NCBI GenBank assembly: GCA_041653595.1
Contig: JBAZFB010000001.1
Coordinates: 4,467 to 68,466, forward strand
Length of the DNA: 64,000 nucleotides
Origin: Candidatus Omnitrophota bacterium
GTDB lineage: Bacteria > Omnitrophota > Gorgyraeia > Pluralincolimonadales > Pluralincolimonadaceae
Direction: 5' to 3'
The position numbers and the translations under genes are program-made. Below are positions 5,815 to 25,010 of the stretch, piece by piece. Position 1 is the first letter of the stretch. The number at the start of each line of letters is the position of its first letter. Below the pieces are notes generated by a model, which saw nothing but the letters and a program-made list of their open reading frames with translations, was not told the origin of the DNA and did no database searches.

Positions 5815-7271
5815 TATTTATCCTTTAGTTCTATGAGCGCTTTCCTGGCCGCCACGCATATCGCGTCGTAATGATCTTGCGCGCCCATGGACAGCCCTTC
5901 TTTTTCCAGATCTTCGGGGAGGAGCGGCTTGCCGAATCTCACCCTGATCGGGTGGCGTTTGGGATACTTTGCCGTGCTGGGCCATGCCTCATAAGCTCCT
6001 TCTATAGCCACAGGCACAAGCTTTGCTCCCGTCTCCTTAGCCAGGATACCGAACCCTTTTTTAAATTTCCCGACTTTGCCGGTAGTACTGCGCAACCCTT
6101 CCGGGAAATAACACAAACCTTTACCGCGTTGTAATACTAAATAAGCGCTGCGCAGCGCCTCCAGAAAATGCGTTGAATAATCAAATGGAATAAGTCTTTC
6201 CATTTTTACGATATCCCTTAAAAAACGGGATTTTACAAACGGCCTAAAATAATACGGTATGAATAAGAAGTAAAACATTTGCAGCACCGGCCTGCGCGGC
6301 AGGCAAGCGTTAATGGCAGGCCCGTCAAGATCGCTCGTGTGGTTTGGATACAGGATATAAGCCCCTTCTTTCGGCACGTTCTGTTCTCCTTCTGACTTAA
6401 TACTGAAAAACAATCTGAAGATCAAACAATCTATGGCTGTTATGCTGAATCTAAGCAGCCAGGCGAAAAAACCGGTGCTGAATTCGAGCGCTCCCAGATG
6501 CTCTTCTTTCGGAAGGACTTGTAAATGTTTTTTCCAGTAGTCCGGACTTAAAGGTAAACTTTTATCCTCCTCCGGGCGGATGCCTTTTGCTCCTTTTAAC
6601 GCATCCTTTATCCCCAGAATGAGGTCTTTTACAATAAAGGCCCGCGAGATCGCCTCATCTTTTATATCGGCGCTAAAAGCCAGCTCAAGGCGCGAAGCAA
6701 GCTCTATCCTGCCTAATGAATCTACGCCAAGGTCCAGCTCCAAAGAATCCTCAAGTATTATCGGTCTTTTAATACCGCTTTGCTCCTTTAGGCATTTTAA
6801 TATTTTTATGCCGGTCCCGGATCCTATCAACAGTTGGTCCGCGGCCGTTAGCTCCCCCGTTACCGGAAGAGCGCCTTCTATTCCTGCCCTCACCCTAGGC
6901 TCATATATTTCCTTGATCGCATTTCTATCTAACTTACCAAGCAGGTCATACGGTAGATCATCAAGCGTAATAGTAAAACCTTTAAGCCTTTTATAAATAG
7001 GGAGCGATGGCAAGACATTATCAAATCTCTCCTTAATGGCTAAATGCAGGTTCACTGAGGCGAATTTCCTGAAATTATCAAGATCCGGCCGGATGATAGC
7101 CCAAAGAATTTTGGATCCCTTTACATCATCCATTCCGGAGACTGTAAAGACGCACATCTCTGTAATAGGGGCGGCCTTTTTATAGAACTCCTCGATCTCT
7201 TCCGGGTAAATTTTCTTCCCCGACTTCAATATGATAAACTCTTTAAATCTGGCCACAAGGTCTTTTATCAT
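5814..7271 (-). CDS. Carrier-protein (ACP-like)–PlsC-type acyltransferase carrying only the C-terminal subdomain of an AMP-binding enzyme at its N-terminus
   Basis: N-terminus matches the AMP-binding C-terminal subdomain (…KIYPEEIEEFY…). Phosphopantetheine-attachment motif LELDLGVDSLGRIEL. PlsC motifs NHTSDLD (HX4D) and FPEGLRS. Truncated paralog of the 911-aa protein at 14860-17595. Confidence 0.75.
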   Translation of the reverse strand: MIKDLVARFKEFIILKSGKKIYPEEIEEFYKKAAPITEMCVFTVSGMDDVKGSKILWAIIRPDLDNFRKFASVNLHLAIKERFDNVLPSLPIYKRLKGFTITLDDLPYDLLGKLDRNAIKEIYEPRVRAGIEGALPVTGELTAADQLLIGSGTGIKILKCLKEQSGIKRPIILEDSLELDLGVDSLGRIELASRLELAFSADIKDEAISRAFIVKDLILGIKDALKGAKGIRPEEDKSLPLSPDYWKKHLQVLPKEEHLGALEFSTGFFAWLLRFSITAIDCLIFRLFFSIKSEGEQNVPKEGAYILYPNHTSDLDGPAINACLPRRPVLQMFYFLFIPYYFRPFVKSRFLRDIVKMERLIPFDYSTHFLEALRSAYLVLQRGKGLCYFPEGLRSTTGKVGKFKKGFGILAKETGAKLVPVAIEGAYEAWPSTAKYPKRHPIRVRFGKPLLPEDLEKEGLSMGAQDHYDAICVAARKALIELKDK

Positions 7272-9931
7272 TTACCCGCCTCATATTTCAATTCAATAGA
7301 ATTTGTTGCGGGTGTAATTATTACGCTCTTAAAACCGGGTAATCGGATATCGATCGGCGGTTCTTTCGCAAGCCATTGTCCGCGCCATTCGACAAGGATA
7401 TTTTCCCCTCGTAGTTTTATGGAAATTTGAATATCCCCAAAACTTGTCGGCGCGGGGCCAAACGCGATCGTCTGGTTTTTCTCCAGCCAGGCTCGCGGGA
7501 TCCCCGAACATAAAATTAATCGGTTGCCTTCTTCGCGCACAAAACAATTCCTTATCATTAAAACCCATTCCGCCGCGGCCCAGACATGCTGCCCGTCTCC
7601 CATACATCCCCCGCCTGTACGCGGATGTACCGACTCAGGCCATTGTCCTGTTGGCGAAGCCAATTTAGCCACTGCTGTCATCAAACCAAAATACCTGGGA
7701 TCACCTGCGCGCAAGAGCGCCTGTGATAAATGTAACGTAAGGTAAGGATTGATCCCTGAATGGGTCATGTCATGAAAAAAACCGCCGTGGACTAAACAAT
7801 TTTTCATTAAATAATCGGCTGTATCTAAGACCCTTGGATCGTTATGCTCAAAAACTCGAAGCGGATAGCTGGCGACCAAAGAGCCGATCGCTCCCGAATC
7901 TAAACGGCGATAAGGAGAGGCCGGTATCGCGGGTCTTTTTAAACGAACTTCTACTTTCTTTAAACTTTGATCTATGCTCTCCAATAATGCCTGCGATTCC
8001 GTTTCAAAATGAGCGGCCTCATCATTATCCTTATAAGCAGCGCACAAAAAGGCCGCTGCTTTCAATCCCGCAACCGCCCAAAAGTCATCCCAGTAATAAA
8101 AATCATTCGGCCCCAAATGCTCAGCGCTAAATCCGGACGGCAATAAACCTGCGTGAGGGTATGGCCCATTGGCGGGCAGTCGTTTTTTATAGATCCACTT
8201 GCCCGCTTTATAGATCGATTTTCCCCATTCTTTAGGCGGGAGATTTCCTGTCATCTCACAATACCGACGCATTATCCACAATGCCTCGCCGTTAGAATCC
8301 CATTCTCCTTCCTGAGAGAGGAAATAACCTTGGGCTGTCTGACGGGAGCGGAAACAATCCAATGAGCGCCGGACACGTTCCTTTAACCCGACGCATAGCA
8401 AACCATGTAATATAAAAGCGGCATCGCGAAACCAAAACCGCCGGTAAATATAAGGCCCGGGATAAACTTCCTTGGGAGAATGCAAAATCATGGTGCGGAT
8501 GGCAGCATCGTAAAGGAACTGAAAATCTTTATCGGGGATCTGCAATGAACACGCGCCCTGGAGGCTTTTCTTCCACGCAAGCTTCGCAGTTTCCCGGCGG
8601 CTGGAATAGGAATCTTTTTCAATTTTATTCTTAGTTAAAGGCACAGAAACGGTAATTTCTTGCGGTTCTCCCGCTTTCAATATAAAAATGGCCGCAGAGG
8701 TGGCCATGCCGACTTTACATGAAATTTCTTTTTCATCTTCCTTGGCTGACAAGCAGCTATAAACATCTCCTCGCTGATAATCTGAAAATACGCATCGATC
8801 CGGAGGTTTATCAAAATATACGAAGTTTTCTCGATTTACTTGCCAGCCTGACGAGCCTTCGAGGAGAGTAATATTATTTATAAAACTCACGCCTTCAGGG
8901 TTATAAGGCCTGAGAGAAACTACTAACTGCGCATTAACAGAAGCAGAACCTCTGATATTAACCTGGCAGATCGGCACTTCGGCTGAACCGGTAACTTGCG
9001 CATTTAATTGAAGCTTTAATTGCTCGAGACTGAATTCTGTAATCACGCAAAGATTGTCATCGAAACACAGTTTTTGCGATACATTTGGATTGCGCGACGG
9101 GATCAACGGGTCCCCCTCTTTTGGAATGATCCAAACATCAATAGACCAACCGTCATAACGGGGAGTAACAAGGCCGCAAGGATCTACAATAGGAAATTCG
9201 GTGCTGTCAGGAACGCCCAAAGCGGTCCAATTTCTATGTGTAAGATTAATTTGAGTTAATGAAAATGACCGCGGGATAAAGGCCTCGCACTCCGGATCAT
9301 ATTGGCATTCCACCCAATAAGGCCAGATCCAATCAAGGTTATGCTGAATGGCTATGCTATTGATCAGGCCCCGGGCATGCAAGACCACGCCTGAACGCAA
9401 TAGTTCAGTCGGAATCGCCACCTCTGAGGGTTGCGTGAAATTCTGTAATTGAGAAATAAATTTAATCGGGTCTAAAAACCCCCGCCGGCGCGCGACGGTC
9501 CTGACTATGAATTTTAACGGTGACCATTTCCATTGCGCAAAACTAAACTTTTCCTTCGATAAAGTCCTGAAAACCCACCATTTAAAACAAACAAAGGTAA
9601 ATATACCTGTTAATATCGTGGCAATGATCAAAGCTAAAAAAACAGCCCCGGGCCGCACATTGAGAATGGTTTGATTTGTAAAAACATTAATTCCCAAAGC
9701 TAAAAAATTAATCAGCGTATACCGGCCAACCTCAGCGTACGATTGTTGGTTGTGTTTAAACGTCCAAAATTTATTAAGCAAATACCCGACAATGCCCGCG
9801 CACGTAAAGGAAATCCCTTTAGATATGCTAAAAGACAAAAAATGAAATAAAATATAATAGACGCTAAAGTCTGTCGCATTGACGATAGTCCCTGCGATTA
9901 AAAACCGGATTATTTCTTTTTTAGTCTTCAT
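7268..9931 (-). CDS. Fusion of an N-terminal GtrA-like 4-TM domain to a large six-hairpin (alpha/alpha)6 glycoside-hydrolase-like domain (GDE_C, GH63 or GH15-like superfamily)
   Basis: N-terminal approx. 120 aa: IRFLIAGTIVNATDFSVYYILF…LLNKFWTFK, the GtrA pattern. C-terminal approx. 750 aa carry W-x-RD-xxF-type motifs (FWFRDAAFILHGLL) and GDGQHVWAAAEW. ATGA overlap with the downstream gene. Confidence 0.62.
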   Translation of the reverse strand: MKTKKEIIRFLIAGTIVNATDFSVYYILFHFLSFSISKGISFTCAGIVGYLLNKFWTFKHNQQSYAEVGRYTLINFLALGINVFTNQTILNVRPGAVFLALIIATILTGIFTFVCFKWWVFRTLSKEKFSFAQWKWSPLKFIVRTVARRRGFLDPIKFISQLQNFTQPSEVAIPTELLRSGVVLHARGLINSIAIQHNLDWIWPYWVECQYDPECEAFIPRSFSLTQINLTHRNWTALGVPDSTEFPIVDPCGLVTPRYDGWSIDVWIIPKEGDPLIPSRNPNVSQKLCFDDNLCVITEFSLEQLKLQLNAQVTGSAEVPICQVNIRGSASVNAQLVVSLRPYNPEGVSFINNITLLEGSSGWQVNRENFVYFDKPPDRCVFSDYQRGDVYSCLSAKEDEKEISCKVGMATSAAIFILKAGEPQEITVSVPLTKNKIEKDSYSSRRETAKLAWKKSLQGACSLQIPDKDFQFLYDAAIRTMILHSPKEVYPGPYIYRRFWFRDAAFILHGLLCVGLKERVRRSLDCFRSRQTAQGYFLSQEGEWDSNGEALWIMRRYCEMTGNLPPKEWGKSIYKAGKWIYKKRLPANGPYPHAGLLPSGFSAEHLGPNDFYYWDDFWAVAGLKAAAFLCAAYKDNDEAAHFETESQALLESIDQSLKKVEVRLKRPAIPASPYRRLDSGAIGSLVASYPLRVFEHNDPRVLDTADYLMKNCLVHGGFFHDMTHSGINPYLTLHLSQALLRAGDPRYFGLMTAVAKLASPTGQWPESVHPRTGGGCMGDGQHVWAAAEWVLMIRNCFVREEGNRLILCSGIPRAWLEKNQTIAFGPAPTSFGDIQISIKLRGENILVEWRGQWLAKEPPIDIRLPGFKSVIITPATNSIELKYEAGK

Positions 9932-10257: not shown

Positions 10258-11472
10258 CTATTTTCCCTCCGCCACAAGCCCGGGCGGAGCCTTGTGCCAC
10301 TTATACCCTTCTATCGCGTCATCATATCCGCGCTCAAAGAGCCTCTTCATTTCCTGCTTATCGAACATCTCCTGTTGATTAGGCTTAAAATCTTCCGGAA
10401 TATACGCTAAATTGTAATCCCATCCTTTTTCCTTCGCGAATGAGTATAGATTGTACGTGTCCCCGCCCATTTTTGACGCTGTGGCGGTCTCGATCAGGCG
10501 CGAGGTTATCGCAGTCAGATTGTCTTCCACCTGTTTCGAGTGCGGCGACATATAACAACAATTCAGGATATATAACCGCGTTCTGAATCCCTTGGGATCG
10601 ATCCCGGAAGATCGCGCCGCGGATCCCGCGCCTTCCAATAACGGATAAATATAAAAAACCCCTCCGATGACCCCGCCATCGGCATGCATCTCGTCATAGC
10701 GCCTGCCGCCGGCTTCGACTTGAAAATAGACCGGAGGAAGCATAGCCGGATACGAGCATGAGGCCAGGATTATTTTGCGGAATACCTTCACCGAATCCGG
10801 GCCTCCTTTGGATGCAAGCGCTCCCATATCCCATATAACAAACTCCTGAGCATCAAGATCCGAGGTCCCCACATATAGCCTGCGCCCCTTCGCATGCTCT
10901 TTGGCGATCTTCGCCATCAGATCCTCATTTACCATATCATCTATCTTTTTAGAGAACAGGGATGAGCTGTTCACGGAATTTCCGAATAGGATGCTAAAGA
11001 TGCCCTTTTGTTTCACCACGTCTTTGGTCGATATCGAGGTAAACAGGTCCGCAAGCTGGTCTTCAGATTCTTTTCCTGAAAACACGGCAATGGCTAGGAG
11101 CGACCCGCTTGAGTAGCCTGTAACTATTTTAAATACCGGCCGGGAGCCTTCCTTTGACCACCCTCTCAATAACCCTATACCGTAGGCGCTGTTCGATACG
11201 CCGCCTCCGATAATGAGCGCGGGATAGGTCTTTATACCGTCAACCATATAGTCCGATTTACCTTCTTCTTTAAACGAATCTGCCAGGCTTTTCCGCATAA
11301 AGAGAGAATCGGCCTTATACGTATAGTAGCGTAGATCCGGCATACCGACAACGACGGCCTTCCCGACAAGATTTTCCGGTACGGCATGCCGCACATGGGC
11401 GCAACCTGATGATGCCAGGAAGCAGGATATTGTCACCAGCGCATAAATAACCTTACGATATCGACTCTTCAT
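10258..11472 (-). CDS. Patatin-like phospholipase, lipoprotein
   Basis: GGGVSNSAYGIGLLRG oxyanion motif, GYSSGS (GxSxG), a DGG catalytic Asp, and a lipobox LASSGC. Confidence 0.85.
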   Translation of the reverse strand: MKSRYRKVIYALVTISCFLASSGCAHVRHAVPENLVGKAVVVGMPDLRYYTYKADSLFMRKSLADSFKEEGKSDYMVDGIKTYPALIIGGGVSNSAYGIGLLRGWSKEGSRPVFKIVTGYSSGSLLAIAVFSGKESEDQLADLFTSISTKDVVKQKGIFSILFGNSVNSSSLFSKKIDDMVNEDLMAKIAKEHAKGRRLYVGTSDLDAQEFVIWDMGALASKGGPDSVKVFRKIILASCSYPAMLPPVYFQVEAGGRRYDEMHADGGVIGGVFYIYPLLEGAGSAARSSGIDPKGFRTRLYILNCCYMSPHSKQVEDNLTAITSRLIETATASKMGGDTYNLYSFAKEKGWDYNLAYIPEDFKPNQQEMFDKQEMKRLFERGYDDAIEGYKWHKAPPGLVAEGK

Positions 11473-11479
11473 AATTCTC

Positions 11480-12874
11480 CTATGGGATCATTATTCCCGA
11501 ACGGATGATTTCTGCGAATTTTTCTGACGATGGCCGTATTATTCGTTCCTGCGTCGTATAGTCCACCCCTATCAACCCAAATCGCGGGACAAACCCTTCG
11601 TTCCATTCATAATTATCCAAGAGCGACCAATAAAGATAACCGATGACAGGGGCCCCCTCTTCCATCGCCTGCGCCACAGCCTTAAGATGCTCTACGATAA
11701 ATGCCACACGCTCGGTATCATCGTTGGTAGTAATCCCGTTTTCTGAAACCAAAAGGGGCAATTTGTACCGCGAAAATTCTTTAAGGAACATATACAATCC
11801 CTTCGGATAAATTTCCCATGAAAGAAAATTATATTTACCTGAATGACGGAACTGTTCTGCGGCTTCGCGCGCATTACCTGAAATTTCCGGGAATCCAAAC
11901 CCGCGGCTGGTGACAAAAACCCGCGTGTAATAATTCAAACCTATAAAATCCAGGGTTTTTCCTCTCGGCAAGTGAACATAGAAAAATCCTAAAATACAGG
12001 CTCTTCCCTGTACCAAAGCCTGGACAAATAATCGGTTAAACATCAAATCGCAAGAACCTGTCGCAACCCGGTCCATTAACGAATAGCCCGATGAAGCCTG
12101 GAATACGAGCACGCTTTGGGCAATCCCGACCATAGGCACTTCCCAGCCTTTTTGAGCATAGGTCTCTTTGATCTTTTCATACGCCAGGACATGCCCCAGA
12201 AGTAAATTTTTGAAAACTTTTAATGTTTTATCCGTTGATTTTTCTCCCGGCGGCCATTCGCCGCTCATATATCCCCTGAAGGCGTGGACAACCGGCTCAT
12301 TCAGCGTTATCCAATAATGGACATCGCCTCCGAGAGCATCGGTCACTTTCTGGGCGTATCTGGCAAATAGTTCCGGGGTCTTCTCTGAAAGCCACCCTCC
12401 CTGGTGCGCCAGCCATACGGGAACTGTAAAATGATACAAAGTCACAACAGGCTCTATCCCCTTTGACTTAAGCGAATTGATGACCTCGCGATAATGATCC
12501 AAGGCAGAGGCGTCAAATTGGCCTTCCCGGGGCTCAATGCGGCTCCATTCAATGGAGAAACGGTGGGCTGTGTGTCCTAAAGTCTGGGCAAGCTTAAAAT
12601 CCTCTTCAAAACGGTTCCATTGGTCGCACGCCTGGCCTGAACGAGTTACCGGGGGCCGGGTTTGTTCCCACTCCCACCAATCATTATTAGTATTATTCCC
12701 CTCGACCTGGTGAGAGGAGGTGGAAGCTCCCCATATAAAATCTTTCGGAAATGTAAACTTGTGCGGTACCGTTTTTGTTATTGCCGTTTTATTGATACCG
12801 GCACATCCGCTAAGAAGAAAAACAATCAGCGCGAGGACAATAGAACAACGGCTTTTTTTCGAATGAATTCGCAT
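11480..12874 (-). CDS. GH1 beta-glucosidase, lipoprotein; catalytically intact paralog
   Basis: TFPKDFIWGASTSSHQVEG, ITLNEP (acid/base) and LLVSENG (nucleophile) are all present, plus a lipobox LLSGCAG. Confidence 0.9.
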   Translation of the reverse strand: MRIHSKKSRCSIVLALIVFLLSGCAGINKTAITKTVPHKFTFPKDFIWGASTSSHQVEGNNTNNDWWEWEQTRPPVTRSGQACDQWNRFEEDFKLAQTLGHTAHRFSIEWSRIEPREGQFDASALDHYREVINSLKSKGIEPVVTLYHFTVPVWLAHQGGWLSEKTPELFARYAQKVTDALGGDVHYWITLNEPVVHAFRGYMSGEWPPGEKSTDKTLKVFKNLLLGHVLAYEKIKETYAQKGWEVPMVGIAQSVLVFQASSGYSLMDRVATGSCDLMFNRLFVQALVQGRACILGFFYVHLPRGKTLDFIGLNYYTRVFVTSRGFGFPEISGNAREAAEQFRHSGKYNFLSWEIYPKGLYMFLKEFSRYKLPLLVSENGITTNDDTERVAFIVEHLKAVAQAMEEGAPVIGYLYWSLLDNYEWNEGFVPRFGLIGVDYTTQERIIRPSSEKFAEIIRSGIMIP

Positions 12875-12906
12875 ATTGACCTTAACCTACCCCCTGCGTA
12901 TCTTCT

Positions 12907-13101
12907 TTATTTTCGAATTAAACCTAAAAACCCGACTATGGCAGCAGCAAATCCGCCGATCAGTAGCCATAGCGCCTTATCTGTAGGCGCACCCGTGAAA
13001 AAGCGCGAGACGTCGGAACTTGCTGAGTGGTAGGCGCTAAACCCAAAAACTAGCAAGATAATCCCTGCGACCAGAAGTGCGGCTGATGCACCCTTATTCA
13101 T
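12907..13101 (-). CDS. Small two-TM membrane protein (DUF3185-like)
   Basis: 64 aa with two hydrophobic helices separated by a short polar loop. Confidence 0.4.
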   Translation of the reverse strand: MNKGASAALLVAGIILLVFGFSAYHSASSDVSRFFTGAPTDKALWLLIGGFAAAIVGFLGLIRK

Positions 13102-13290
13102 ATATCCTCCTATTGTTTGTTTCCTGCTTTTGCAATAATTTTACCACTTTCCTGGAGATAAAACAATTGCGAGATTCCGTATTTTTCTGACTTTTTTCTA
13201 CTATAGAAATAAGTCAACAAAAAGAGGAATCCGCCAATTTACAAAATACAGGTTTCAGGTATACTTATAATCAGATAAAGGAGGTGCACC

Positions 13291-13947
13291 ATGTTTAGCC
13301 GTAAGGGAATGGTTTTGGCGGGGATTTTGAGTGCAGTCTTAATTTTCGTATTCGCGCGATCCGGGTTTTGCGTAACGGCGCCCGGTACGGACAAGGTGCG
13401 TCAAGTCTCGGGAGAGATCGTGTGGATCGACCTCAAACAAGGTACATTGCAACTTAGGCAGGAGGGAAACCGCAAAAAAGCGGTTGAGTACAGGATCAAC
13501 GCGCATGACACGTTTGTTACCGATCCGGCGCGCAAGGAATTCCTCACGCTGAACGACCTGCGTGTAGGCCAGGATGTAACATTAGAGCTTCCCGCCGTCC
13601 GCGACTGGAAGATCGTCAGTAAGATAATCGCCGAACCCTTGCCTGTCTTCGAAATAGTTACGGGGGATGTCGTAGCTATAGATACGGAAACAGGGATGAT
13701 GACCTTGCAGGTAATAGGCCGGGGACAGAACGAAGTGTCATATTTCGTATTTCAGCCGGATGATATCTACTATATGAAGAGCCCGAGCAAAGAACCCGTG
13801 CACCTGCAGGTCAAGCGAGGGGACAGGGTAAAAGTTGAATTCCTGCCGGATAGCGGAAAACAGCGCGCGCACTATATAACGCTGATGCCTGCTCCGGCGG
13901 CGGGGTCTACCACGACTACAACGACGACGACTACAACGGTTAAATAA
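13291..13947 (+). CDS. Secreted hypothetical protein with an internal duplicated module and a C-terminal deca-threonine tail
   Basis: A signal peptide, a ribosome-binding site AAAGGAGG before the ATG, two similar segments (GEIVWIDLKQGTLQL and GDVVAIDTETGMMTLQV), and a C-terminus …AAGSTTTTTTTTTTVK. Confidence 0.55.
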   Translation: MFSRKGMVLAGILSAVLIFVFARSGFCVTAPGTDKVRQVSGEIVWIDLKQGTLQLRQEGNRKKAVEYRINAHDTFVTDPARKEFLTLNDLRVGQDVTLELPAVRDWKIVSKIIAEPLPVFEIVTGDVVAIDTETGMMTLQVIGRGQNEVSYFVFQPDDIYYMKSPSKEPVHLQVKRGDRVKVEFLPDSGKQRAHYITLMPAPAAGSTTTTTTTTTTVK

Positions 13948-14026: not shown

Positions 14027-14828
<802 letters not shown>

Positions 14829-14859: not shown

Positions 14860-17595
14860 TTATATGCTCCGTTTCCCCTTGAGCTTTATAACCTCTTCCC
14901 TTATGCCAAAGGCTATTGCCTCATATTCATCTTTGACCCCCGATCTTAGCCCCTCTTTCATGAGCTCGCCAAAATCAAAAGGCCTTCCAAAAGTTACTTT
15001 GATCGGATGAGGCCTCGGAAGCGGCTTTGTCCTCGGCCAGGATTCGTATGAACCCGTCATTAATACGGGAACCAGAGGGACATTCAGCTCTTTCGCCAAT
15101 ATCCCGACCCCTTTTTTGAATTCCTTAATATTTCCGTCGATAGTCCTTTGGCCCTCCGGGAAAATACAGATTATCTTGTCATTTCGAAGAACATAAGAAG
15201 ATGCCTGCATAGCTTCCACGAAGTGCATACCCGGATCGATGGGAATGACCCTGATATATTTTACGATATTTCTGATTAAGAACTGTTCGAAATAGGCCCT
15301 GAAACCTACGAAGAAAAGACTCTTTCGTAAACTCGCAGGCATAGAAGCCTCAATGATAAACGCGTCCAGGTAACTGCCGTGGTTGACGCACAGGATGCAC
15401 TTTCCCGTTCTCGGGATATTTTCTGTCCCGAAAACCTCAAGCCGCCAGATCACCCTGAAGACAAGGCGTAAAATTTCAGAGAATAGCAGCATCCCTAAAA
15501 TTGCCATCCGGTTCGGCGCCAGATTGACCTTTTTTATTATATCTTCGGCGGGTTTTTCATTTAAGATCTCATTCCATAGAGCGCGGCTCTTGACCTGCGG
15601 AATGAGCTCTCCCTGGACCCCTTCACCCGGGACCAGCCTCTCTATCCCGAGAATAAGTTCTTTAACGGTAGAGGCCTTAGCCATTACCTCATCCGGTATG
15701 GTAATGTTAAGCGCCTGCTCCAACATCACCATCAGCTCCACGCGGCCCAGCGAATCGATACCTAGATCTAATTCCAGATGATCGGCCGGGGATATCCCCC
15801 TTTTTAACTTCGCATGTTTATTAAGGGCTTCTATTATCCTGCTGCTGACACCGGAAGAGAGCAACCTGAGGTCCTCATCTGTAGCGGGAATTTCCTCCGC
15901 CGCGCCGTCTAATTTTATACCTTTAAGCTCATCCAGATATTTTTTCTTAACTTCATATCTTTTTATCTTGCCTAACCGCGTGCGCGGTATGCCCTCCTTT
16001 ACAATAATAAAGCCCTTGATGCGTTTGTAGGGAGCAAGTCCTTCAGACAGGTTTTCCAGCTCCCACCTGATCGTACTGTTAAGATCGACCTCTCCCTTCT
16101 CGCGGCAATAGTCAGCGTCAGGCACCACTACGGCGGACAGCCTCTCTTCCTCCGTTCCGCCGACGCCAAGGACGCATATTTCTTTAATGTAAGGGCTCTT
16201 GGTATAATGGGATTCTACCTCTTCGGGATAGATGTTTTTCCCGGAGCTTAAAACAATTATCTCTTTCTTCCTACCTGTAATATAAAGATAGCCGTCCTTG
16301 TCTATACGGCCAAGGTCGCCGGAGTAAAACCAGCCGTCCTTTAAAACGCTCGAGGTCTCGTCCGCCCGTTTATAGTAGCCTTTCATGACATTGGGGCCTT
16401 TGATCACCACCTCGCCCATACCCGCTGCGTCGGGACTGTCAATTTTCAATTCCACATCCGGGATCACTCTGCCGACAGAACCGATCTTCGGCTTCTTTAA
16501 CGGGTTGAAAGCTACTACTGGCGATGTTTCGGTAAGTCCGTATCCTTCAAGTATAGTGAAACCTATTTTCACAAGGAATCTCGCCGCTTCTTCATTTAAC
16601 TTTGCGCCGCCGCAGGCAAAAAATCTTAAAGCCCGCCCGAATGGCCGGTGTATTGCCGGCAGGGCAAACCTGCTTAAATTTATTCCGCTAAACCTTCTTA
16701 TTAGCCATAATATCTCTATCAGCCCTAAAAGAGGCATCCTTAACATAAACGGTATCTTCTTTATCTTATCCGATATACTCATATAAAACAGGGAAATGAG
16801 CTGCGGCACGCCTACCAATACCGTTACCCCTGCCTCCCTCATCCGGTCCAGCAATTCATCGCTCCTAATGCTCGAAGTATACGTGACCCCCGCGCGGCAG
16901 AAAAGAGGCGTGATCAGCGTGATCATAAATGGGTAGGCGTGATGCAACGGCAATATCGATATGAAAATATCCTTATCCGAGAAGAGTTTCAGCTTGTCGA
17001 TACTTTGAAAATCAGAGTAAATATTCTCATGCGTGAGCATCACCCCTTTTGGCTTATCGGTGGTGCCTGATGTATAGATAAGCGAAGCGATATCTTCGGA
17101 AAGGACCTCGGGCCATGCGGCGCCTTCAGATGAAGTAAGTTTTACCTGAGACAGGCCTATAAGGTTATCCTTTTGAATATCAAGGTCCAGGATGACGATC
17201 TTGTCCAGCCCTGACTTTATCTTATTAATATTTTTCGCCTGAAAAACGGCATAGGAGACAAATATGACCTTTGCGGCGCAGTCATTGATGAGATTTCCTA
17301 TCTCTTGTTCGGTCAGCTGCGGATCTAAAGGAACGCAGGTAAGGCCCGCAGCCATTATGCCTAAATAGATCACCGCCCATTCCGGACGGTTCTCTAAACA
17401 TATAGCCGCGAAGTCCCCCTTCTTAAAACCCTCTTTAATAAGAAACGCGCCTATCCTCAGGGAGAGGTCTTCTGTTTGCCCATATGTCCATCTCTCCCAG
17501 GCAGGGCCTTTTTTTATCTGAAGGCACACCCTGTCTGAAAACCGGGAAGAAATTTGGGCAAATATCTTATGGATGACCATATCTTCCTTTTTCAT
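14860..17595 (-). CDS. Tri-domain acyl-activating enzyme (AMP-binding)–ACP–PlsC-type acyltransferase (Aas-like but self-contained)
   Basis: AMP-binding motif [16 protein letters not shown]; carrier motif [15 protein letters not shown]; PlsC motifs VNHGSYLD and FPEGQRT. The start was set at MKKEDM, whose ATG overlaps the TGA of the upstream hydrolase (ATGA at 17592-17595). Confidence 0.85.
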
Positions 17596-18359
17596 AGTGT
17601 ACCAAGAAACCATTTTTTTACTTCTGTGACGAATTGCCCGGGATAATCCCGCATTAAGTACTCTGCGTGCGGCCCGTTCTTTATAATGATCATTTTCTTC
17701 GTCCCGCTTGCCTTTTGGTATAGGGCCTCGGAATGCCACGGCCTGATCACCCAATCCCGGCTGCCGTGCATGAACATGATCGGAATGGTGATCTTACCGA
17801 CGTTATCAATGGGCCTCTTCTTAGCCAGCCAGAATGGCCCCGGTCGCACGCCTTTACCGATTTTTCCCTTAGGATCCGATAAAATGTACGCCACGTCACC
17901 TTTCCAGTCAAGGGCCCATACCCAGTAATCAATTCTCGATATATTCGACGGCGCGCTGACACAAATAAAACTATCCACGCGTTTATCATTAGCGAGGAGA
18001 TTAATACTGATGCTTGCTCCCATAGAAAAAGCAACCAACCCGATCTTAGGGTATTGCGGAGCGATAAAATCTAATACCGCCCGTAAATCATTCTCTTCCC
18101 GGCTCGTCCAGGTAAACACGCCGCTGCTTTTGCCATGCCCGCGAAAATCAAACATAAAAATATCGTACTCTCCGCCAAGCGCCTGAGTCAACTGCTGCAA
18201 AAGCAGGCACTGTTTACTATTATAATAACCATGCGCAATAATGATAACGGCGAGCCCGCCATTCTTAAAATGCTGGAATGATATTTTCTGGCGGTCAACG
18301 GTGGCAAGCGTACCGCTGACTACCGCGGGAATAACTGCTTCAAGGCCCGGCGTTTTCAT
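17592..18359 (-). CDS. alpha/beta-fold hydrolase (lipase/thioesterase-like)
   Basis: GHGKSSG and AFSMGAS (GxSxG) motifs; translationally coupled to the downstream tri-domain enzyme. Confidence 0.8.
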   Translation of the reverse strand: MKTPGLEAVIPAVVSGTLATVDRQKISFQHFKNGGLAVIIIAHGYYNSKQCLLLQQLTQALGGEYDIFMFDFRGHGKSSGVFTWTSREENDLRAVLDFIAPQYPKIGLVAFSMGASISINLLANDKRVDSFICVSAPSNISRIDYWVWALDWKGDVAYILSDPKGKIGKGVRPGPFWLAKKRPIDNVGKITIPIMFMHGSRDWVIRPWHSEALYQKASGTKKMIIIKNGPHAEYLMRDYPGQFVTEVKKWFLGTL

Positions 18360-19155: not shown

Positions 19156-19707
19156 TCACATAGGGGGCAAGGAGCTGAAATTGGCATCATCAAAATAGCA
19201 GCACCCCCCTGTCTTCTTTTTGGCAGCCTGGATCACTGCCTTGATCTTTGCTTTAGCGGCGCCTGAGGGCGCAATAACCGCCGGAGTTGATAAAAGCTTC
19301 CAAGTATCGCTGGCGACGGTAAGCGGAGGGCTCTTTATCGGCTCACTTATTATGACGTTATCGGTAGTGCACCATTCTATCTGTATCCACGCTTTAGAAT
19401 CGCCGGAAATAGAGTCGCCGGGCTTGCCTAAAATATAGACGCTCGCTTTATACTGCATGCCGGGAATTATTTTTATGTACTGTTCAAATGATCCGTCTCC
19501 ATAATCCCAAACCCAAGTCTTTCCGGATTGTTTGCCGCTCCTATAGGTTCCCGTATCATATGTGGCGTCGCCGTACAAACCCCATCCGGACGGACCAGCT
19601 TTTTCAAAACCCGGGTTGACAAGCAAATTACCTTGCTCAGCGAACGAGGATAAACCAACAGAGCTCAGGGCAAGGACAAGAAAACAAATAAGACATGATC
19701 TTCTCAT
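19156..19707 (-). CDS. Secreted CBM4_9-like (NPGFE-type) carbohydrate-binding protein, paralog 1
   Basis: Signal peptide then LLVNPGFEKA…; three paralogs occur in tandem; sits directly downstream of promoter cassette copy 1. Confidence 0.6.
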   Translation of the reverse strand: MRRSCLICFLVLALSSVGLSSFAEQGNLLVNPGFEKAGPSGWGLYGDATYDTGTYRSGKQSGKTWVWDYGDGSFEQYIKIIPGMQYKASVYILGKPGDSISGDSKAWIQIEWCTTDNVIISEPIKSPPLTVASDTWKLLSTPAVIAPSGAAKAKIKAVIQAAKKKTGGCCYFDDANFSSLPPM

Positions 19708-19721
19708 CCTTATGTTCCTCC

Positions 19722-19816
19722 TTTTATTTAGCTGGTTTTATTATAGGGGTAATGTCTTGCTATATCAAGGATTTTTGGGTATCAGGGAGGGATTTACTCG
19801 CGGAATTTGAGGCCAC
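19722..19816 (-). repeat. Promoter cassette copy 1 (-35 TTGATA at 19763-19768, -10 TATAAT at 19740-19745 on the minus strand, 17-bp spacer) plus the upstream arm GGAATTTGAG…
   Basis: Read directly from the sequence; about 80-90% identical to the copies at 22255, 25821 and 33681. Confidence 0.55.
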
Positions 19817-19873
19817 TATTAAGAAAATTTTGGGGCAGGGATCTTGGACCCCTGCCCCATCTCTAAACGAAAC

Positions 19874-20464
19874 TTACTTAACTGACTTTTTTCTGTTGAA
19901 ACCAAACAAACCGACCAATCCTGAGCCGAGCAAAAGCATGCTTGCCGGTTCCGGAACTGCCTGCGCATCAAAGTTGGCATTGTCGAAGTAGACATCATTG
20001 CCGCTATGGCTAGTAGGAGATACCAGAACATAACCCAGCTTTGCCGTCGTGGCGCCGTCCGGCGCTACCGTCCATGGAGTTTCAAAGTACGTCCAGTCGG
20101 TATTAGCGGTTGTAAGCTTGGCGCTCTCTACGGCCGTTCCCGCACCATCCCACTGGAACTGTATCCAAGCGCTACCGGTATCTAAACCGGCAGATTTCAG
20201 ATAGCCGCTTGCCTTATAGGCAACACCCCCCGTAACATCAACCGTCTGTTCGAACTTCCCATCGGCGTAGTTCCATGACCAAGCATGCGCTGACTGGGCG
20301 CCGCTCATCTTTACCTCTGTAACATAGTTGCTATCACCCCAGTTGCTCCAACCAGTGCCGGTTTCAAACCCAGGGTCGCTGAGCAAGTTAGCGGATGCTG
20401 TTGACGGCGTTGAGATAAGCGCGACTGCCATGATCACCAAAGTTGCAAAATAGAATTTCTTCAT
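19874..20464 (-). CDS. Secreted CBM4_9-like protein, paralog 2, with a C-terminal PEP-CTERM sorting signal
   Basis: Signal peptide, LLSDPGFETGTGW…, and a C-terminus VPEP-ASMLLLGSGLVGLFGF-NRKK, which is the canonical PEP motif plus TM helix plus basic tail. Confidence 0.7.
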   Translation of the reverse strand: MKKFYFATLVIMAVALISTPSTASANLLSDPGFETGTGWSNWGDSNYVTEVKMSGAQSAHAWSWNYADGKFEQTVDVTGGVAYKASGYLKSAGLDTGSAWIQFQWDGAGTAVESAKLTTANTDWTYFETPWTVAPDGATTAKLGYVLVSPTSHSGNDVYFDNANFDAQAVPEPASMLLLGSGLVGLFGFNRKKSVK

Positions 20465-20503
20465 TTAACTATTTCACCTCCTCTCTTTTCTTTATTCTTG
20501 TAT

Positions 20504-20527
20504 GTTTCTGCTCACGAGAGCAGAAAC
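20504..20527 (-). promoter_or_regulatory. 10-bp perfect stem-loop (GTTTCTGCTC-ACGA-GAGCAGAAAC) in the leader of paralog 2, about 35 nt upstream of its start codon
   Basis: Perfect inverted repeat; it shares the core GCTC(A/T)CG(A/T)GAGC with the hairpin at 21162-21189. Confidence 0.4.
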
Positions 20528-20590
20528 ATTAAAAATCTGTCTCTAATATCCTTCTCATCGGGAATAAGATCTGTTGCTTACATTAATATA

Positions 20591-21136
20591 TTACGGGACC
20601 GTCCTGAAATCCGCATCATCAAAATAGCAAGACCCCGGAGTGTTCTTTTGGGCAGCCTGGATCACTACCTTGATCTTTGCTTTAGCGGCGCTTGGGGGCG
20701 CAATAGCCGTCGGAGTTGATAAGATCGCCCAAGTGTCGCTGGCGCCGGCAAGAGGAGAGCTCTTTACCGGGTCACCAATTATGGCGCTATCGGCAGTGCA
20801 CCATTCTATCTGTATCCACACCTTAGAATCGCCGGAAATAGGGTCGCTGGGTTTACTTAAAACAGAGACGCTCGCTTTATACTGCGTGCCGGGAATTACA
20901 TCGACATACTGCTCGAATACTCCATCGCCATAATCCCAAGCCCAAGCCTTTCCGGATTGTATACCGCTCTTATAGGTTTCAGTATCATATGTAGAGTCGC
21001 CGTACAGATCCCATCCAAGCGAATCAGCTTTTTCAAAACCCGGGTTGACAAGCAAGTTACCGTCAGCAGCGAATAAGGACAAAATGAAGAAAGTCAAAAC
21101 GAAAACAAGAATACAGCCTACGCATACCCCTTTCAT
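20591..21136 (-). CDS. Secreted CBM4_9-like protein, paralog 3 (start at MKGVCVG, preceded by AAAGGAGGAAGG)
   Basis: LLVNPGFEKADSLGW…; about 70% identical to paralog 1; no PEP-CTERM. Confidence 0.65.
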   Translation of the reverse strand: MKGVCVGCILVFVLTFFILSLFAADGNLLVNPGFEKADSLGWDLYGDSTYDTETYKSGIQSGKAWAWDYGDGVFEQYVDVIPGTQYKASVSVLSKPSDPISGDSKVWIQIEWCTADSAIIGDPVKSSPLAGASDTWAILSTPTAIAPPSAAKAKIKVVIQAAQKNTPGSCYFDDADFRTVP

Positions 21137-21161
21137 GCTTCCCTTCCTCCTTTTTTTGATG

Positions 21162-21189
21162 CCTATGCTCTCGTGAGCATAAACATAGG
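21162..21189 (-). promoter_or_regulatory. Nested stem-loop CCTATGCTC-TCGTG-AGCAT-AAA-CATAGG in the leader of paralog 3, downstream of a TTGACA–17–TAACCT promoter (21187-21215)
   Basis: Inverted repeats read directly; -35 TTGACA at 21210-21215 and -10 TAACCT at 21187-21192 on the minus strand. Confidence 0.4.
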
Positions 21190-21234
21190 TTACCATATAG
21201 GCTTTATAATGTCAAGCCGATTTTATTGCTTTTT

Positions 21235-22332: not shown

Positions 22333-24945
22333 CTATCGCCCCGCATACGCAAAGCGGGTCTGGAGCCGGATGTCGCGGGATGAACTGCCGACGAGAATGT
22401 CGAATTCGCCGGGTTCGGCGACCCAACCCTTCGCCTCAGCGTCGTAGAACGCGAGGGCTCGCTCGTTCAAACGGAAGATGACCTGCTTCGTTTCGCCCGG
22501 CGCCAACTCCACCTTCTCGAACCCCTTGAGCTCCTTCACGGGGCGGAGCAGGCGGGACTCGACATCGTGGACGTAGAGTTGCACGACTTCCTTGCCCTTG
22601 CGCTTGCCCGTGTTCGTGATGTCCACGCTAGCGACAAGGGTCTTGGGGTCCACATTCAGGTTGCTGTACTTGAATGTCGTGTAGGACAATCCGTGCCCGA
22701 ACGGGAAAAGGGGTTCCACGTTCCGAGTGTCGTAGTAACGGTAGCCGACCAGCAGGCCTTCCTTATACTCGCAGTCCTTATCGTTGTACTGCCCGATCGC
22801 GTGGGCTGGACAGTCCTCGAGCCGCTTGGGAAACGTGATCGGCAGCTTGCCGGAGGGGTTGACGTCACCGAACACGATGTCGGCCACGGCGTTTCCGGCT
22901 TCCATGCCGGCATACCACGTCTGGACCACGCAGGGCACTTTGTCGATCCACGGCATCTCTACGGCGCTGCCGGAGATCAGGAACACGGCAGTGCGCGGAT
23001 TGGCCGCCGCGACTGCCTCGATCAACTCGTTCTGCCGCCCGTGCAGCCGGATGTCACGACGGTCCTCACCCTCCATGTCGTACCGATGGTTCTGGCCCGC
23101 GAACACCAGCACGGCATCTGCCGCGCGCGCCGCCTTGATCGCCTCGGCAAATTCGACTTCGGGGCCGACGCGGGAGTCCGGCCGGACCCAACCCAGTTTG
23201 ACCATCGCATCGCCGCTGGATTCATAGTACTCCACCTCGAAGCGGTAGGTCTGGCCCGCGGCCAACTCGATCTTCGCGTCTTTCCGTTCCTCTGCATGAT
23301 CGGCCCAGTTGTCGATCACCACCTTGCCGTTGATCTTCAGCCTCGAACCGTCGTCGCTCGTGAGGCCCAAGTTATAGATCCCGTTGGCAGTCGGCAGGAT
23401 ATCAGCCGTCCACCGCGCGGAGAAGTTATCCTTGGATACACCTGCGGCCGGACCCAGGTCCTTCCAGTTAAAGTCCATGGCCTTCTCATACCGGATCTCG
23501 ACCGGCTGACCATTCAGATTACGGTTGTTGAAGTACTCGCCCTTCCAACTCCGGATGTTTGACTTGGGATCCGTGGTCTGCACATACTTATCGCTGATCG
23601 CTTCGAAGACCGTGGCGTCGCCCGTGTCCCGGTAGCCCTCCACGTACGTGATCTTAACCATTCCCCCGCCCTTGCGTTTCAGCCCCTCGAGCGGGGTGAT
23701 TTCGTAAAGCGCGCGGATCGCCGAACTGCCGCCTTGATTCGCATGCTGCATGACGGCGTTCTCGCCGATCACCGCGAGCTTCAGTGTCTTGTTAATGTCG
23801 AGCGGCAGGACGCCGTCGTTCTTCAGCAGCACCATCGCCTCGCCGGCGACATCCCGGACCGCCTGCTGGTTTGCGGCGGTGTTGCGCGATCCGGTCTTGC
23901 GTGTCGACGGATCAAGCATACCGGCCCGGATCATGAAGCGGAGGATCCGCCGGACCTTGTCGTCGACGACGCTCTCCGGAATCTCCCCGCGCTCGACGGC
24001 CTGCCGAAGGGGATTCGCAAAGAAGAAGGTGTCGTAGTTGTCCGACGTGCCCATCTCTATATCGAGCCCGTTCACCGCGGCATCGCGCGTGCTGTGCGTT
24101 CCGCCCCAGTCCGAAATACAGACGCCGTCGAACCCCCACTCCCCCTTGAGAATGTCGTTCACGAGGTACTTGTTCTCCCCGCACCACTGTCCCCGGAACT
24201 TGTTGTAGGAGGTCATGATAGTCCAGGCACCCGCGCGGACGGCCGCCTCGAACGCCGGCAGGTAAATTTCGCGCAGGGTGCGCTCGTCGGCCACCACGTT
24301 GACCCAACCGCGGTTCCACTCCTGGTTATTCAGCGCGTAGTGCTTCACGCACGCCGCCACATCGTTGCTCTGGATGCCGCGCACCACCTCGGACGCCATC
24401 TGGCCGACTTGGTACGGGTCCTCGCCGTAATACTCAAAATTGCGGCCACAGACGGGAGTGCGGACGATGTTGATGCCGGGGCCCAGGAGGATGTCCTTGT
24501 TACGATGACGCGCCTCCGTGCCCAATGTTTCGCCGAATCGGCGTCCCATTTCCCGATTCCAAGTCGATGCCAGCGCGGAGCCGGTCGGGAGATAGGTCAC
24601 GTAGTCATCCTCCCACCCCGCGGGCTCCCAGGAGTTGGCGGCGGTTTCGCGCCGTACTCCGTGCGGGCCGTCGGACATCGCCACACGGGGGATCCCCAGC
24701 CGTTCAATCCCGGCGGTATTGAACTTCGAATTGGCGTGGCAAAGCGAAAGCTTTTCGGCCAGCGACATCTGCTTCAGCAGGTCATTGATGCGTGTTTCAA
24801 TTGCCGGCACCGGCGCGAGGTTCTCAGCTTTGTCGATAGCGGTCGCGGCAACAGCTTGAGTTTCTGATCCAAAACCCTGGAGTCCGCCGCATGATATAGT
24901 GAATGTTACCAGAAGTGTGACGAAAATGTACTTAAACATATTCAT
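22333..24945 (-). CDS. GH3 beta-glucosidase (BglX-like) with a PA14 insertion and a C-terminal Fn3-like domain; secreted or lipoprotein. GC-rich gene.
   Basis: GH3 motifs (KHYALNNQE, GFDGVCISDWGG), a PA14-like segment (FSARWTADILPTANGIYNLGLTSDDGSRLKINGK), and an N-terminus MNMFKYIFVTLLVTFTISCGG. Confidence 0.9.
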   Translation of the reverse strand: MNMFKYIFVTLLVTFTISCGGLQGFGSETQAVAATAIDKAENLAPVPAIETRINDLLKQMSLAEKLSLCHANSKFNTAGIERLGIPRVAMSDGPHGVRRETAANSWEPAGWEDDYVTYLPTGSALASTWNREMGRRFGETLGTEARHRNKDILLGPGINIVRTPVCGRNFEYYGEDPYQVGQMASEVVRGIQSNDVAACVKHYALNNQEWNRGWVNVVADERTLREIYLPAFEAAVRAGAWTIMTSYNKFRGQWCGENKYLVNDILKGEWGFDGVCISDWGGTHSTRDAAVNGLDIEMGTSDNYDTFFFANPLRQAVERGEIPESVVDDKVRRILRFMIRAGMLDPSTRKTGSRNTAANQQAVRDVAGEAMVLLKNDGVLPLDINKTLKLAVIGENAVMQHANQGGSSAIRALYEITPLEGLKRKGGGMVKITYVEGYRDTGDATVFEAISDKYVQTTDPKSNIRSWKGEYFNNRNLNGQPVEIRYEKAMDFNWKDLGPAAGVSKDNFSARWTADILPTANGIYNLGLTSDDGSRLKINGKVVIDNWADHAEERKDAKIELAAGQTYRFEVEYYESSGDAMVKLGWVRPDSRVGPEVEFAEAIKAARAADAVLVFAGQNHRYDMEGEDRRDIRLHGRQNELIEAVAAANPRTAVFLISGSAVEMPWIDKVPCVVQTWYAGMEAGNAVADIVFGDVNPSGKLPITFPKRLEDCPAHAIGQYNDKDCEYKEGLLVGYRYYDTRNVEPLFPFGHGLSYTTFKYSNLNVDPKTLVASVDITNTGKRKGKEVVQLYVHDVESRLLRPVKELKGFEKVELAPGETKQVIFRLNERALAFYDAEAKGWVAEPGEFDILVGSSSRDIRLQTRFAYAGR

Positions 24946-25010
24946 ACCTTTGCTCCTTTTTATACAAATCATTTAATAATAGCTCCTTTTTTCATTGTTT
25001 CTCTTTATAT

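Follow-up and report, generated by a model that had tools for sequence, protein, structure and literature searches.

An Omnitrophota α/β hydrolase coupled to an adenylation–carrier–acyltransferase protein: a candidate module for ATP-driven fatty-acid salvage and lipid re-acylation

What does an enzyme that appears to activate, carry and transfer an acyl chain within one polypeptide contribute to a bacterium, and what does a hydrolase encoded against its start codon bring to it? These questions are raised by a 64,000-nucleotide stretch of contig JBAZFB010000001.1 from a Candidatus Omnitrophota bacterium (GenBank assembly GCA_041653595.1), the whole of which we call the window, and by two of its genes: one for an α/β hydrolase, hyd-A, and one for a protein with an adenylation domain, a carrier domain and a PlsC-type acyltransferase domain, hereafter the tri-domain protein. 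An original prediction, made from the sequence without database searches, had read the pair as machinery for an acyl-chain editing cycle on a membrane lipid or lysolipid. We find that the two genes are genuinely linked within Omnitrophota, and we give an even chance to the reading that, taken as a whole, they form an ATP-driven module for fatty-acid salvage and re-acylation onto a membrane lipid.

The hydrolase gene (17592–18359, minus strand, 255 residues, Pfam Hydrolase_4) and the tri-domain gene (14860–17595, minus strand, 911 residues) share the four bases ATGA at 17592–17595, and all genes around the pair lie on the same strand. The hydrolase C-terminus reads ...GTL and is followed by a TGA at 17594–17592, and the tri-domain ATG occupies 17595–17593 in the context CT-ATGA-AA. 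A mechanical list of open reading frames (ORFs) begins the long frame at a TTG codon at 17754; because homologues align from the ATG at 17595, we take the product to start there and to comprise 911 residues. The overlap of this ATG with the TGA of an upstream GxSxG hydrolase, as originally described, can be read directly in the sequence.

The tri-domain protein matches four Pfam families in the order AMP-binding (residues 17–408, E = 1.6e-78), AMP-binding_C (residues 459–543, E = 3.4e-08, with AMP-binding_C_3 also matched), PP-binding (residues 600–648, E = 5.6e-10) and Acyltransferase PF01553 (residues 718–846, E = 5.2e-22), which bears out the originally assigned order of adenylation, carrier and acyltransferase domains in one chain. 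On the minus strand, the adenylation core spans residues 1–438 (16282–17595), with the motifs TSG...PKG at 174–184 and GYGLTE at 351–356, and its C-terminal subdomain spans residues 439–560 (15916–16281), including Arg442 and Lys543. The acyl carrier protein (ACP)-like domain follows at residues about 585–660 (15616–15843), with the phosphopantetheine site at Ser615 of the motif LGIDSLG (codon 15751–15753). The chain ends with a PlsC/LPLAT-type acyltransferase domain at residues about 690–911 (14863–15528), in which His739 (15379–15381) and Asp744 (15364–15366) form the HX4D motif NHGSYLD and FPEGQR lies at 812–817. We aligned 37 sequences, down to 31% identity and including proteins of the type of ElbD, a Myxococcus xanthus enzyme described below. 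The serine of the predicted DSLG carrier motif, Ser615, is present and invariant in this alignment, as are His739, Asp744, Gly815 and Arg442; Asp614 is nearly so, and the adenylation motifs TSG...PKG and YGLTE together with Asp427 and Lys543 are at least 90% conserved.

The nearest solved sequences of the adenylation domain are CoA ligases (malonyl-CoA synthetase and FadD13), its best NCBIfam matches are CoA ligases as well, and no fatty acyl-AMP ligase (FAAL) occurs among the best 60 solved sequences matching it. The A5 (Glu356) to A7 (Asp427) interval measures 71 residues and, aligned to Escherichia coli Aas, contains no extra residues; the FAAL-specific insertion of about 20 residues presumably belongs in this interval, which would leave no room for it here. 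The adenylation core does hold a hydrophobic insertion at residues about 267–321 (Kyte–Doolittle hydropathy 1.84 at 281–299), which FadD-type models skip, matching in two stretches, and which is missing from E. coli Aas; we liken it to the additional segment found in long-chain acyl-CoA synthetases of the ACSL/FAA1 type. A helix at residues 698–716, amphipathic or hydrophobic (hydropathy 1.92), precedes the acyltransferase domain, at a position presumably taken in PlsC by the membrane-anchoring helices. By sequence, the acyltransferase domain has a single solved relative, Thermotoga maritima PlsC (5kym, E = 3.4e-10). Neither the tri-domain protein nor the hydrolase reaches any NCBIfam equivalog cut-off.

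This architecture is not unprecedented, since homologues of 1430–1517 residues carry the architecture of ElbD: in representatives of this length the match to the tri-domain protein begins at their own residue about 540–600, and the three that we scanned all contain NAD_binding_4 plus Sterile, AMP-binding and Acyltransferase domains, with PP-binding detected in two of them. Proteins of ElbD architecture are 33–36% identical to the tri-domain protein over its residues about 8–905. The original prediction had not recognized the domain order from characterized systems; this part of it fails, as ElbD of M. xanthus, an ether-lipid enzyme, carries an acyl-CoA synthetase (ACS), an ACP and an acyltransferase (AT, of AGPAT type) in this very order behind a fatty acyl reductase (FAR) domain, and in vitro experiments confirmed that its ACS and ACP are active (PMC9131029). 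Other phyla have ElbD-like homologues without the reductase domain, for which lipid data are lacking (PMC9131029); such homologues had been noted already in 2014. At least 120 clusters of a 90%-cluster database combine the same three domains at 52–100% identity, and the named ones all belong to Omnitrophota or the Planctomycetes–Verrucomicrobia–Chlamydiae (PVC) group. In a 50%-cluster library the versions without FAR make up at least 150 clusters, nearly all non-fragments among the best 150 representatives align over their full length at 32–52% identity, and species-representative genomes contain full-length copies in Omnitrophota, Nitrospirota, Methylomirabilota/NC10, many Acidobacteriota, Dadabacteria, Spirochaetota and one Fusobacterium. 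The family is therefore common across many phyla; its members without FAR have not been biochemically characterized. Its variants (P0279, P0317 and P0357) include one in which three PP-binding stretches stand in tandem between the adenylation domain and the acyltransferase, and proteins of about 1160–1180 residues with two adenylation domains.

The best Pfam family of the hydrolase is Hydrolase_4 (E = 2.6e-19, 69.9 bits against a gathering cut-off of 27). Its oxyanion motif HG (residues 43–44) and its catalytic residues Ser112 in GFSMG (18024–18026, minus strand), Asp202 (17754–17756) and His231 (17667–17669) are invariant in 43 hydrolase homologues. To judge from the two alignments, the catalytic residues of both proteins are intact and under selection, with a conservation far beyond chance. 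The AlphaFold2 model of the hydrolase has a mean predicted local distance difference test score of 81 and a confident core, and Foldseek places it near the Pf2001 esterase, cinnamoyl esterases and monoglyceride lipases (Rv0183 and human MGLL). With hydrolases of the monoglyceride lipase/lysophospholipase type it shares the Ser-Asp-His triad, the HG oxyanion motif and a core fold with a cap, at Foldseek E values of 1e-13 to 1e-18 and an identity of just 15–21%; unlike Rv0183, MGLL and the Pf2001 esterase, it comes with a carrier-containing acyltransferase, either as a coupled gene or in one fused chain.

This coupling recurs in relatives. A related locus whose tri-domain protein is 78% identical (L089) has the same 4-bp overlap, and in four 90%-clusters (P0017, P0046, P0049 and P0056) hydrolase and tri-domain protein are fused in frame into one polypeptide of about 1160 residues. 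In one fused locus (L081), fusion and overlap differ by one nucleotide, CTGATGAAA versus CTATGAAAA. The four fusion junctions read TL-MKRED, TL-IKKDD, TLGQMKDAQKD and TL-VKKEN; since they differ from each other and one of them lacks a start codon, a shared sequencing artefact is improbable. In other loci a hyd-A orthologue still lies upstream despite the insertion of a 192-residue ORF of unknown function (L001) or a PCMT fragment (L003), and in two loci (L090 and L091) a three- or four-gene two-component cassette separates hyd-A from the tri-domain gene. In the first of these, hyd-A is also fused to a family 4 glycosyltransferase (GT4) without a carrier domain, in one protein of 698 residues (L090, 1–234), and in the second an orthologue of the GT4 gene of the window directly precedes hyd-A (L091, 1–1116).

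A second α/β hydrolase family, hyd-B, only 23% identical to hyd-A, is linked to the tri-domain gene as well. It overlaps the 3' end of that gene in two loci (L082, 7736–8530; L092, 6745–7539) and lies upstream of it in two others, one of them on a Planctomycetia contig (L086, 1974–2756; L027, 1965–2762), and pseudogene-like remnants of its C-terminus lie downstream of the tri-domain gene in two loci (L086, 6789–6926; L003, 9135–9332). In addition, the longest contig of 29 of the 78 unfused tri-domain clusters is exactly equal in size to that of a hydrolase cluster, which is a crude proxy. Because of the overlap, the in-frame fusions, the persistence despite insertions, the second hydrolase family and this proxy, the link between hydrolase and tri-domain gene is, as judged by comparative genomics, real within Omnitrophota, not universal and not a product of chance. 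The functional link that the original prediction had drawn from one overlap is upheld by the fusions in four clusters and by an adjacency repeated through rearrangements.

The closest functional parallel of the tri-domain protein may be Aas. Its adenylation domain is 29% identical (E = 8e-33) and its acyltransferase domain 24% identical (E = 2e-12) to the corresponding domains of the E. coli enzyme. Both catalytic domain types are shared, but the acyltransferase comes first in Aas and last in the window protein, and Aas relies on soluble ACP whereas the window protein has a built-in carrier; the scores against the NCBIfam models for Aas fall far under the cut-offs (PRK08633, 261.9 bits against 1221; PRK06814, 211 against 1349). 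Aas re-acylates lysophospholipids that LplT flips into the cell (PMC11416262), and the presumed logic would be alike: free fatty acid and ATP yield a carrier thioester, which re-acylates a lysolipid. By this analogy, and with the same even confidence as for the module as a whole, the tri-domain protein may be viewed as a self-contained, domain-permuted functional analogue of Aas. Adenylation domains fused to LPLAT/AGPAT-like domains figure in FAAL surveys as unusual and uncharacterized (PMC8460268, PMC12820801); the window adenylation domain differs from those fusions in being nearest to CoA ligases, and hydrolase coupling does not appear in those surveys.

The parallel extends to a transporter. 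A major facilitator superfamily (MFS) gene of the ATG22-like type (PF11700) lies immediately upstream of the tri-domain gene in three loci (L086, 2776–4008; L092, 2776–4008; and the P0119 locus), and in the first two it overlaps the 5' end of its neighbour, an arrangement like that of lplT and aas in E. coli. MFS homologues of about 30% identity occupy the same position in two Acidobacteriota loci (L017, 4399–5970; L022, 219–1562). An orthology of this partner with LplT was considered and rejected, as the transporter hits none of the NCBIfam models for LplT at E ≤ 0.001 and BLASTP detects no similarity between it and E. coli LplT; only the analogy is kept.

We propose the following mechanism. 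The ACSL/FadD-like adenylation domain would use ATP to adenylate a free long-chain fatty acid, giving acyl-AMP, and the acyl group would then be loaded onto the phosphopantetheine arm of the protein's own carrier at Ser615. The PlsC-type domain (His739/Asp744) would move it, at the cytoplasmic face of the membrane, to the hydroxyl of a lyso-glycerolipid or of an acceptor of the glycerol-phosphate type. The co-translated hydrolase, resembling monoglyceride lipases and lysophospholipases, would cleave an acyl chain off a phospho- or glyco-glycerolipid and pass the released fatty acid, the remaining lysolipid as acceptor, or both to the tri-domain enzyme. Overall, acyl chains would be exchanged, recycled or salvaged without dependence on soluble ACP or CoA. 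The three chemical steps of the tri-domain protein, predicted from its motifs and by analogy with ElbD and Aas, are probably as described. For the hydrolase we are more guarded: that it feeds lipid-derived fatty acid or lysolipid to its partner, as the fusions and neighbourhoods suggest, falls slightly short of an even bet.

A lipid substrate is favoured by several observations nonetheless: hyd-A is also fused to a GT4 enzyme that has no carrier domain, hyd-B was recruited independently, and other lipases (patatin, GDSL lipase and esterase) recur nearby. A role as a lipid esterase is likewise favoured because Hydrolase_4 is the best family, because monoglyceride lipases are among the fold neighbours and because the MFS transporter lies directly upstream of the tri-domain gene in two phyla.

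The neighbourhood of the pair in the window has a similar character. A patatin-like phospholipase gene (10258–11472, minus strand, Pfam) comes directly after a gene for a β-glucosidase-like member of glycoside hydrolase family 1 (GH1; 11480–12874, minus strand, Pfam and NCBIfam BGL); the two lie 2–4.6 kb downstream of the tri-domain gene on the same strand. In a related locus (L091, 7192–8388) the tri-domain gene is followed after 0.7 kb by a patatin orthologue of 75% identity, and in another (L084) a GH1 orthologue of 67% identity comes right after it. In the latter locus one called gene (6748–8670) encodes an acyltransferase plus GH1 product of 640 residues, and the window itself has a second GH1 paralog at 386–1810. 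A GDSL-lipase/TPR gene and a PF00756 esterase gene adjoin the module in two other loci.

Further downstream, the window encodes a 485-residue paralog (5814–7271, minus strand; Pfam PP-binding and Acyltransferase) composed of an adenylation C-terminal subdomain, a carrier and an acyltransferase. It is 38% identical to residues 439–908 of the tri-domain protein (E = 7e-98) and lacks the adenylation core. The paralog is kept at about 485 residues in at least 120 Omnitrophota clusters, where it is annotated as plain PlsC. One idea, which is inference only, is that its carrier could be loaded in trans by the tri-domain enzyme. The next gene encodes a GT4 glycosyltransferase (4456–5814, minus strand, Pfam) whose best named match is the α-monoglucosyl-diacylglycerol synthase model NF049988 (E = 5e-41), the next NCBIfam matches being other lipid glycosyltransferases. 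Both genes belong to an overlapping run on the minus strand (4456–9931) that starts with a gene for an 887-residue protein, continues with the paralog (4-bp overlap) and the GT4 gene (1-bp overlap) and is followed by histidine-kinase/two-component genes. We considered the 887-residue ORF as the missing adenylation core of the paralog and rejected it, as it consists of a GtrA-like membrane domain and a large unassigned domain unrelated to such a core. Since patatin, GH1, GT4, the 485-residue paralog and lipases recur near the module, it is, on this comparative evidence, embedded in a loose and rearranging set of lipid-hydrolysing, lipid-glycosylating and acyl-transferring genes in this Omnitrophota lineage. 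The proposed cycle of deacylation and re-acylation fits these recurring lipolytic and glycolipid genes.

Genes related to lipid transport occur as well. AsmA/YhdP-like genes are found in the window at 34962–37874 (plus strand), 17 kb away, and after the tri-domain/hydrolase pair in a relative (L082, 8721–10364), and the fused locus L081 has MlaE, MlaF and MlaD genes 2.7 kb further downstream (11188–13489). Outside Omnitrophota the only recurring neighbour is the MFS gene of the two Acidobacteriota loci, and the others vary (HD-GYP/GAF, Nramp, ThiF, HlyIII and M20 peptidase); in a Fusobacterium metagenome-assembled genome (MAG), a gene for a haemolysin-III/PAQR-family membrane protein lies directly upstream of the tri-domain gene (L023, 5136–5768). 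Immediately after the pair, 31 bp past the tri-domain stop codon, the window has an Fe/Mn superoxide dismutase gene (sodB, 14199–14828, minus strand), a position not conserved in relatives. The hydrolase, tri-domain and sodB genes may share one transcript, as a strong terminator-like hairpin comes only after sodB (14019–13977) and promoter-like sites precede the SYLF and CBM-like genes; these are consensus matches only. The GC content is about 0.45–0.48 over the first 22 kb, 0.58 at 22–24 kb, where a GH3/PA14 gene lies (22333–24972), and 0.52–0.55 in the second half of the window (36000–64000), which points to a possible mosaic origin. The remainder of the window encodes housekeeping functions, among them FeoB, the AsmA/YhdP-like protein, a Mur ligase, PurH and MnmE.

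Several results count against a lipid-salvage module. No hydrolase adjoins the tri-domain gene in several Omnitrophota and PVC loci (L002/L085 and L083), nor in L084, where a two-component cassette fills the 4-kb flank, and none stands beside the gene in any of the 23 full-length loci from other phyla. The hydrolase cap (residues 147–178) is strongly conserved within Omnitrophota yet poorly modelled by AlphaFold2. The GT4 match to the glucosyl-diacylglycerol synthase model reaches 141 bits against a cut-off of 400, the GH1 match to BGL stays under its curated cut-off, and no MFS gene resembling the ATG22-like partner is present in the 64-kb window. The acyltransferase activity of ElbD could not be shown in vitro (PMC9131029). 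Finally, Foldseek also returns the trans-acting thioesterases DcsB and GrgF, and the hydrolase, where fused, is N-terminal and lies just before the adenylation domain. In the window family it thereby takes the place of the FAR domain of ElbD, which also acts on the activated acyl group.

These last two points lead to the explanation that survives best beside re-acylation of lipids, namely that the hydrolase acts on the carrier, either editing a mis-primed or stalled arm in the manner of a type II thioesterase or serving as a release or second acyl-transfer domain, with the chemistry of the tri-domain protein unchanged. Overlap or fusion ties the two together tightly and one to one, as might be expected of a proofreading partner, and the fold search cannot tell a lipid esterase from a carrier thioesterase, because both kinds are among the neighbours. 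However, the hydrolase does not match the Pfam family Thioesterase (PF00975) at E ≤ 0.01 and finds its best family in Hydrolase_4, hyd-A also occurs fused to a GT4 enzyme that offers no carrier, plain acyl-carrier hydrolysis would be a futile, ATP-burning cycle, and most members of the tri-domain family, across many phyla, have no such hydrolase partner. We consider a carrier-directed role unlikely, but it is a live rival to the deacylation half of the originally proposed cycle.

A re-acylating module could also serve an acceptor other than a membrane glycerolipid, such as an exopolysaccharide, a product associated with PEP-CTERM/exosortase, an amino-lipid or a secondary metabolite. Exosortase-A systems have an acyl-CoA ligase (TIGR03098), a carrier protein and two hydrolases of their own, genes of the PEP-CTERM and carbohydrate-binding-like kinds are found 1–3 kb upstream of the pair, and GT4, GtrA-like and GH genes are nearby. 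The PEP-CTERM gene (19874–20464, minus strand) is followed by a strong terminator-like hairpin (19859–19831) and flanked by genes for CBM-like and NTTRR-F1-domain proteins (19156–21196). This trio is not conserved beside the module in relatives, and the acyltransferase domain is nearest to PlsC and Aas. We also rejected an assignment of the adenylation domain as an exosortase-A-associated ligase: it scores 167.7 bits against TIGR03098, whose cut-off is 592, lower than against generic FadD models, and the hydrolase matches no exosortase-associated hydrolase model at E ≤ 0.001. A non-glycerolipid acceptor is accordingly a distinctly unlikely alternative to the membrane-lipid acceptor that we favour.

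Metagenomic surveys assume a different role, reading "ElbD homologues" of Omnitrophota as makers of alkyl ether lipids. Such homologues were counted by blastp in 93 of 267 Omnitrophota MAGs from Black Sea metagenomes (PMC11868695), and the tri-domain protein, at its 33–36% identity over the ACS–ACP–AT part, passes the thresholds of that survey; moreover, elbD is known to occur in split form, its reductase encoded by an ORF of its own (bioRxiv 10.64898/2026.06.23.733905). In the window family, ether-lipid synthesis is nevertheless very unlikely because a reductase is found neither in the protein nor in the window nor in related loci: Pfam detects no FAR domain (NAD_binding_4/Sterile) in the 911-residue protein, tblastn with two FAR domains returns nothing in the 64-kb window at E ≤ 1, and 14 Omnitrophota loci contain no FAR-like sequence at E ≤ 1e-3. 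The annotated neighbours include no HAD (elbB-like) or NAD-epimerase (elbE-like) gene. In a neighbour-joining tree, proteins with the reductase group in a single clade that lies among proteins lacking it; the window protein branches outside this group, within a separate Omnitrophota clade. The other full-length members of about 880–940 residues that we found have no reductase domain, nine Omnitrophota and PVC relatives with listed domains show none, and Pontiella, which has such homologues, makes no ether lipids (PMC11868695). The window protein thus shares with ElbD the order of ACS, carrier and acyltransferase in one chain, the carrier serine and the HX4D motif, and differs from it in lacking FAR and neighbours of the elbB/elbE type and in standing outside the FAR clade. 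By its domain content and placement, it is a FAR-less member of a large ACS–ACP–AT family that includes ElbD.

That the adjacency is coincidental, with hyd-A an unrelated housekeeping esterase and the fusions assembly or indel artefacts, is scarcely credible: fusion and overlap do differ by a single nucleotide, as is typical of long-read assembly errors, and many related loci lack the hydrolase, but the four fused clusters come from several sources with differing junctions, one without a start codon, the linkage survives gene insertions and changes of order, and a second hydrolase family is independently linked in Omnitrophota and Planctomycetia.

What is new here is moderate in extent and lies in the hydrolase link, as the tri-domain architecture had already been noticed and belongs to a large, barely studied family. 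The searched literature contains no description of the coupled or fused hydrolase, of the GT4–hydrolase fusion, of the MFS partner or of the paralog lacking the core. The Omnitrophota literature that we searched for statements on fatty acids or lipids yielded one incidental mention, of short-chain fatty acids, and nothing on lipid metabolism. A broader picture can be imagined, although we think it improbable as a whole: a machine for a bacterial "Lands cycle", consisting of one chain in some lineages, that would swap the acyl chains of phospho- or glycolipids or rebuild lipids from scavenged host or environmental lipid imported through the ATG22-like MFS protein, with the 485-residue paralog loaded in trans, as part of a two-component-regulated lipid-renovation cluster of ultra-small, possibly host-dependent Omnitrophota.

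Our findings bear on how this family is read in genomes. BLAST surveys count such proteins as "ElbD homologues" and take them as ether-lipid potential, as in the Black Sea MAGs; since the window protein and the members of about 880–940 residues lack the reductase, ether-lipid inferences should check domain architecture. The two hydrolase families, GT4, the ATG22-like MFS transporter, patatin and GH1 provide testable hypotheses on the role of a widespread orphan ACS–ACP–AT family. If the module does salvage or edit acyl chains, it would matter for our understanding of membrane synthesis and maintenance in uncultured, very small Omnitrophota.

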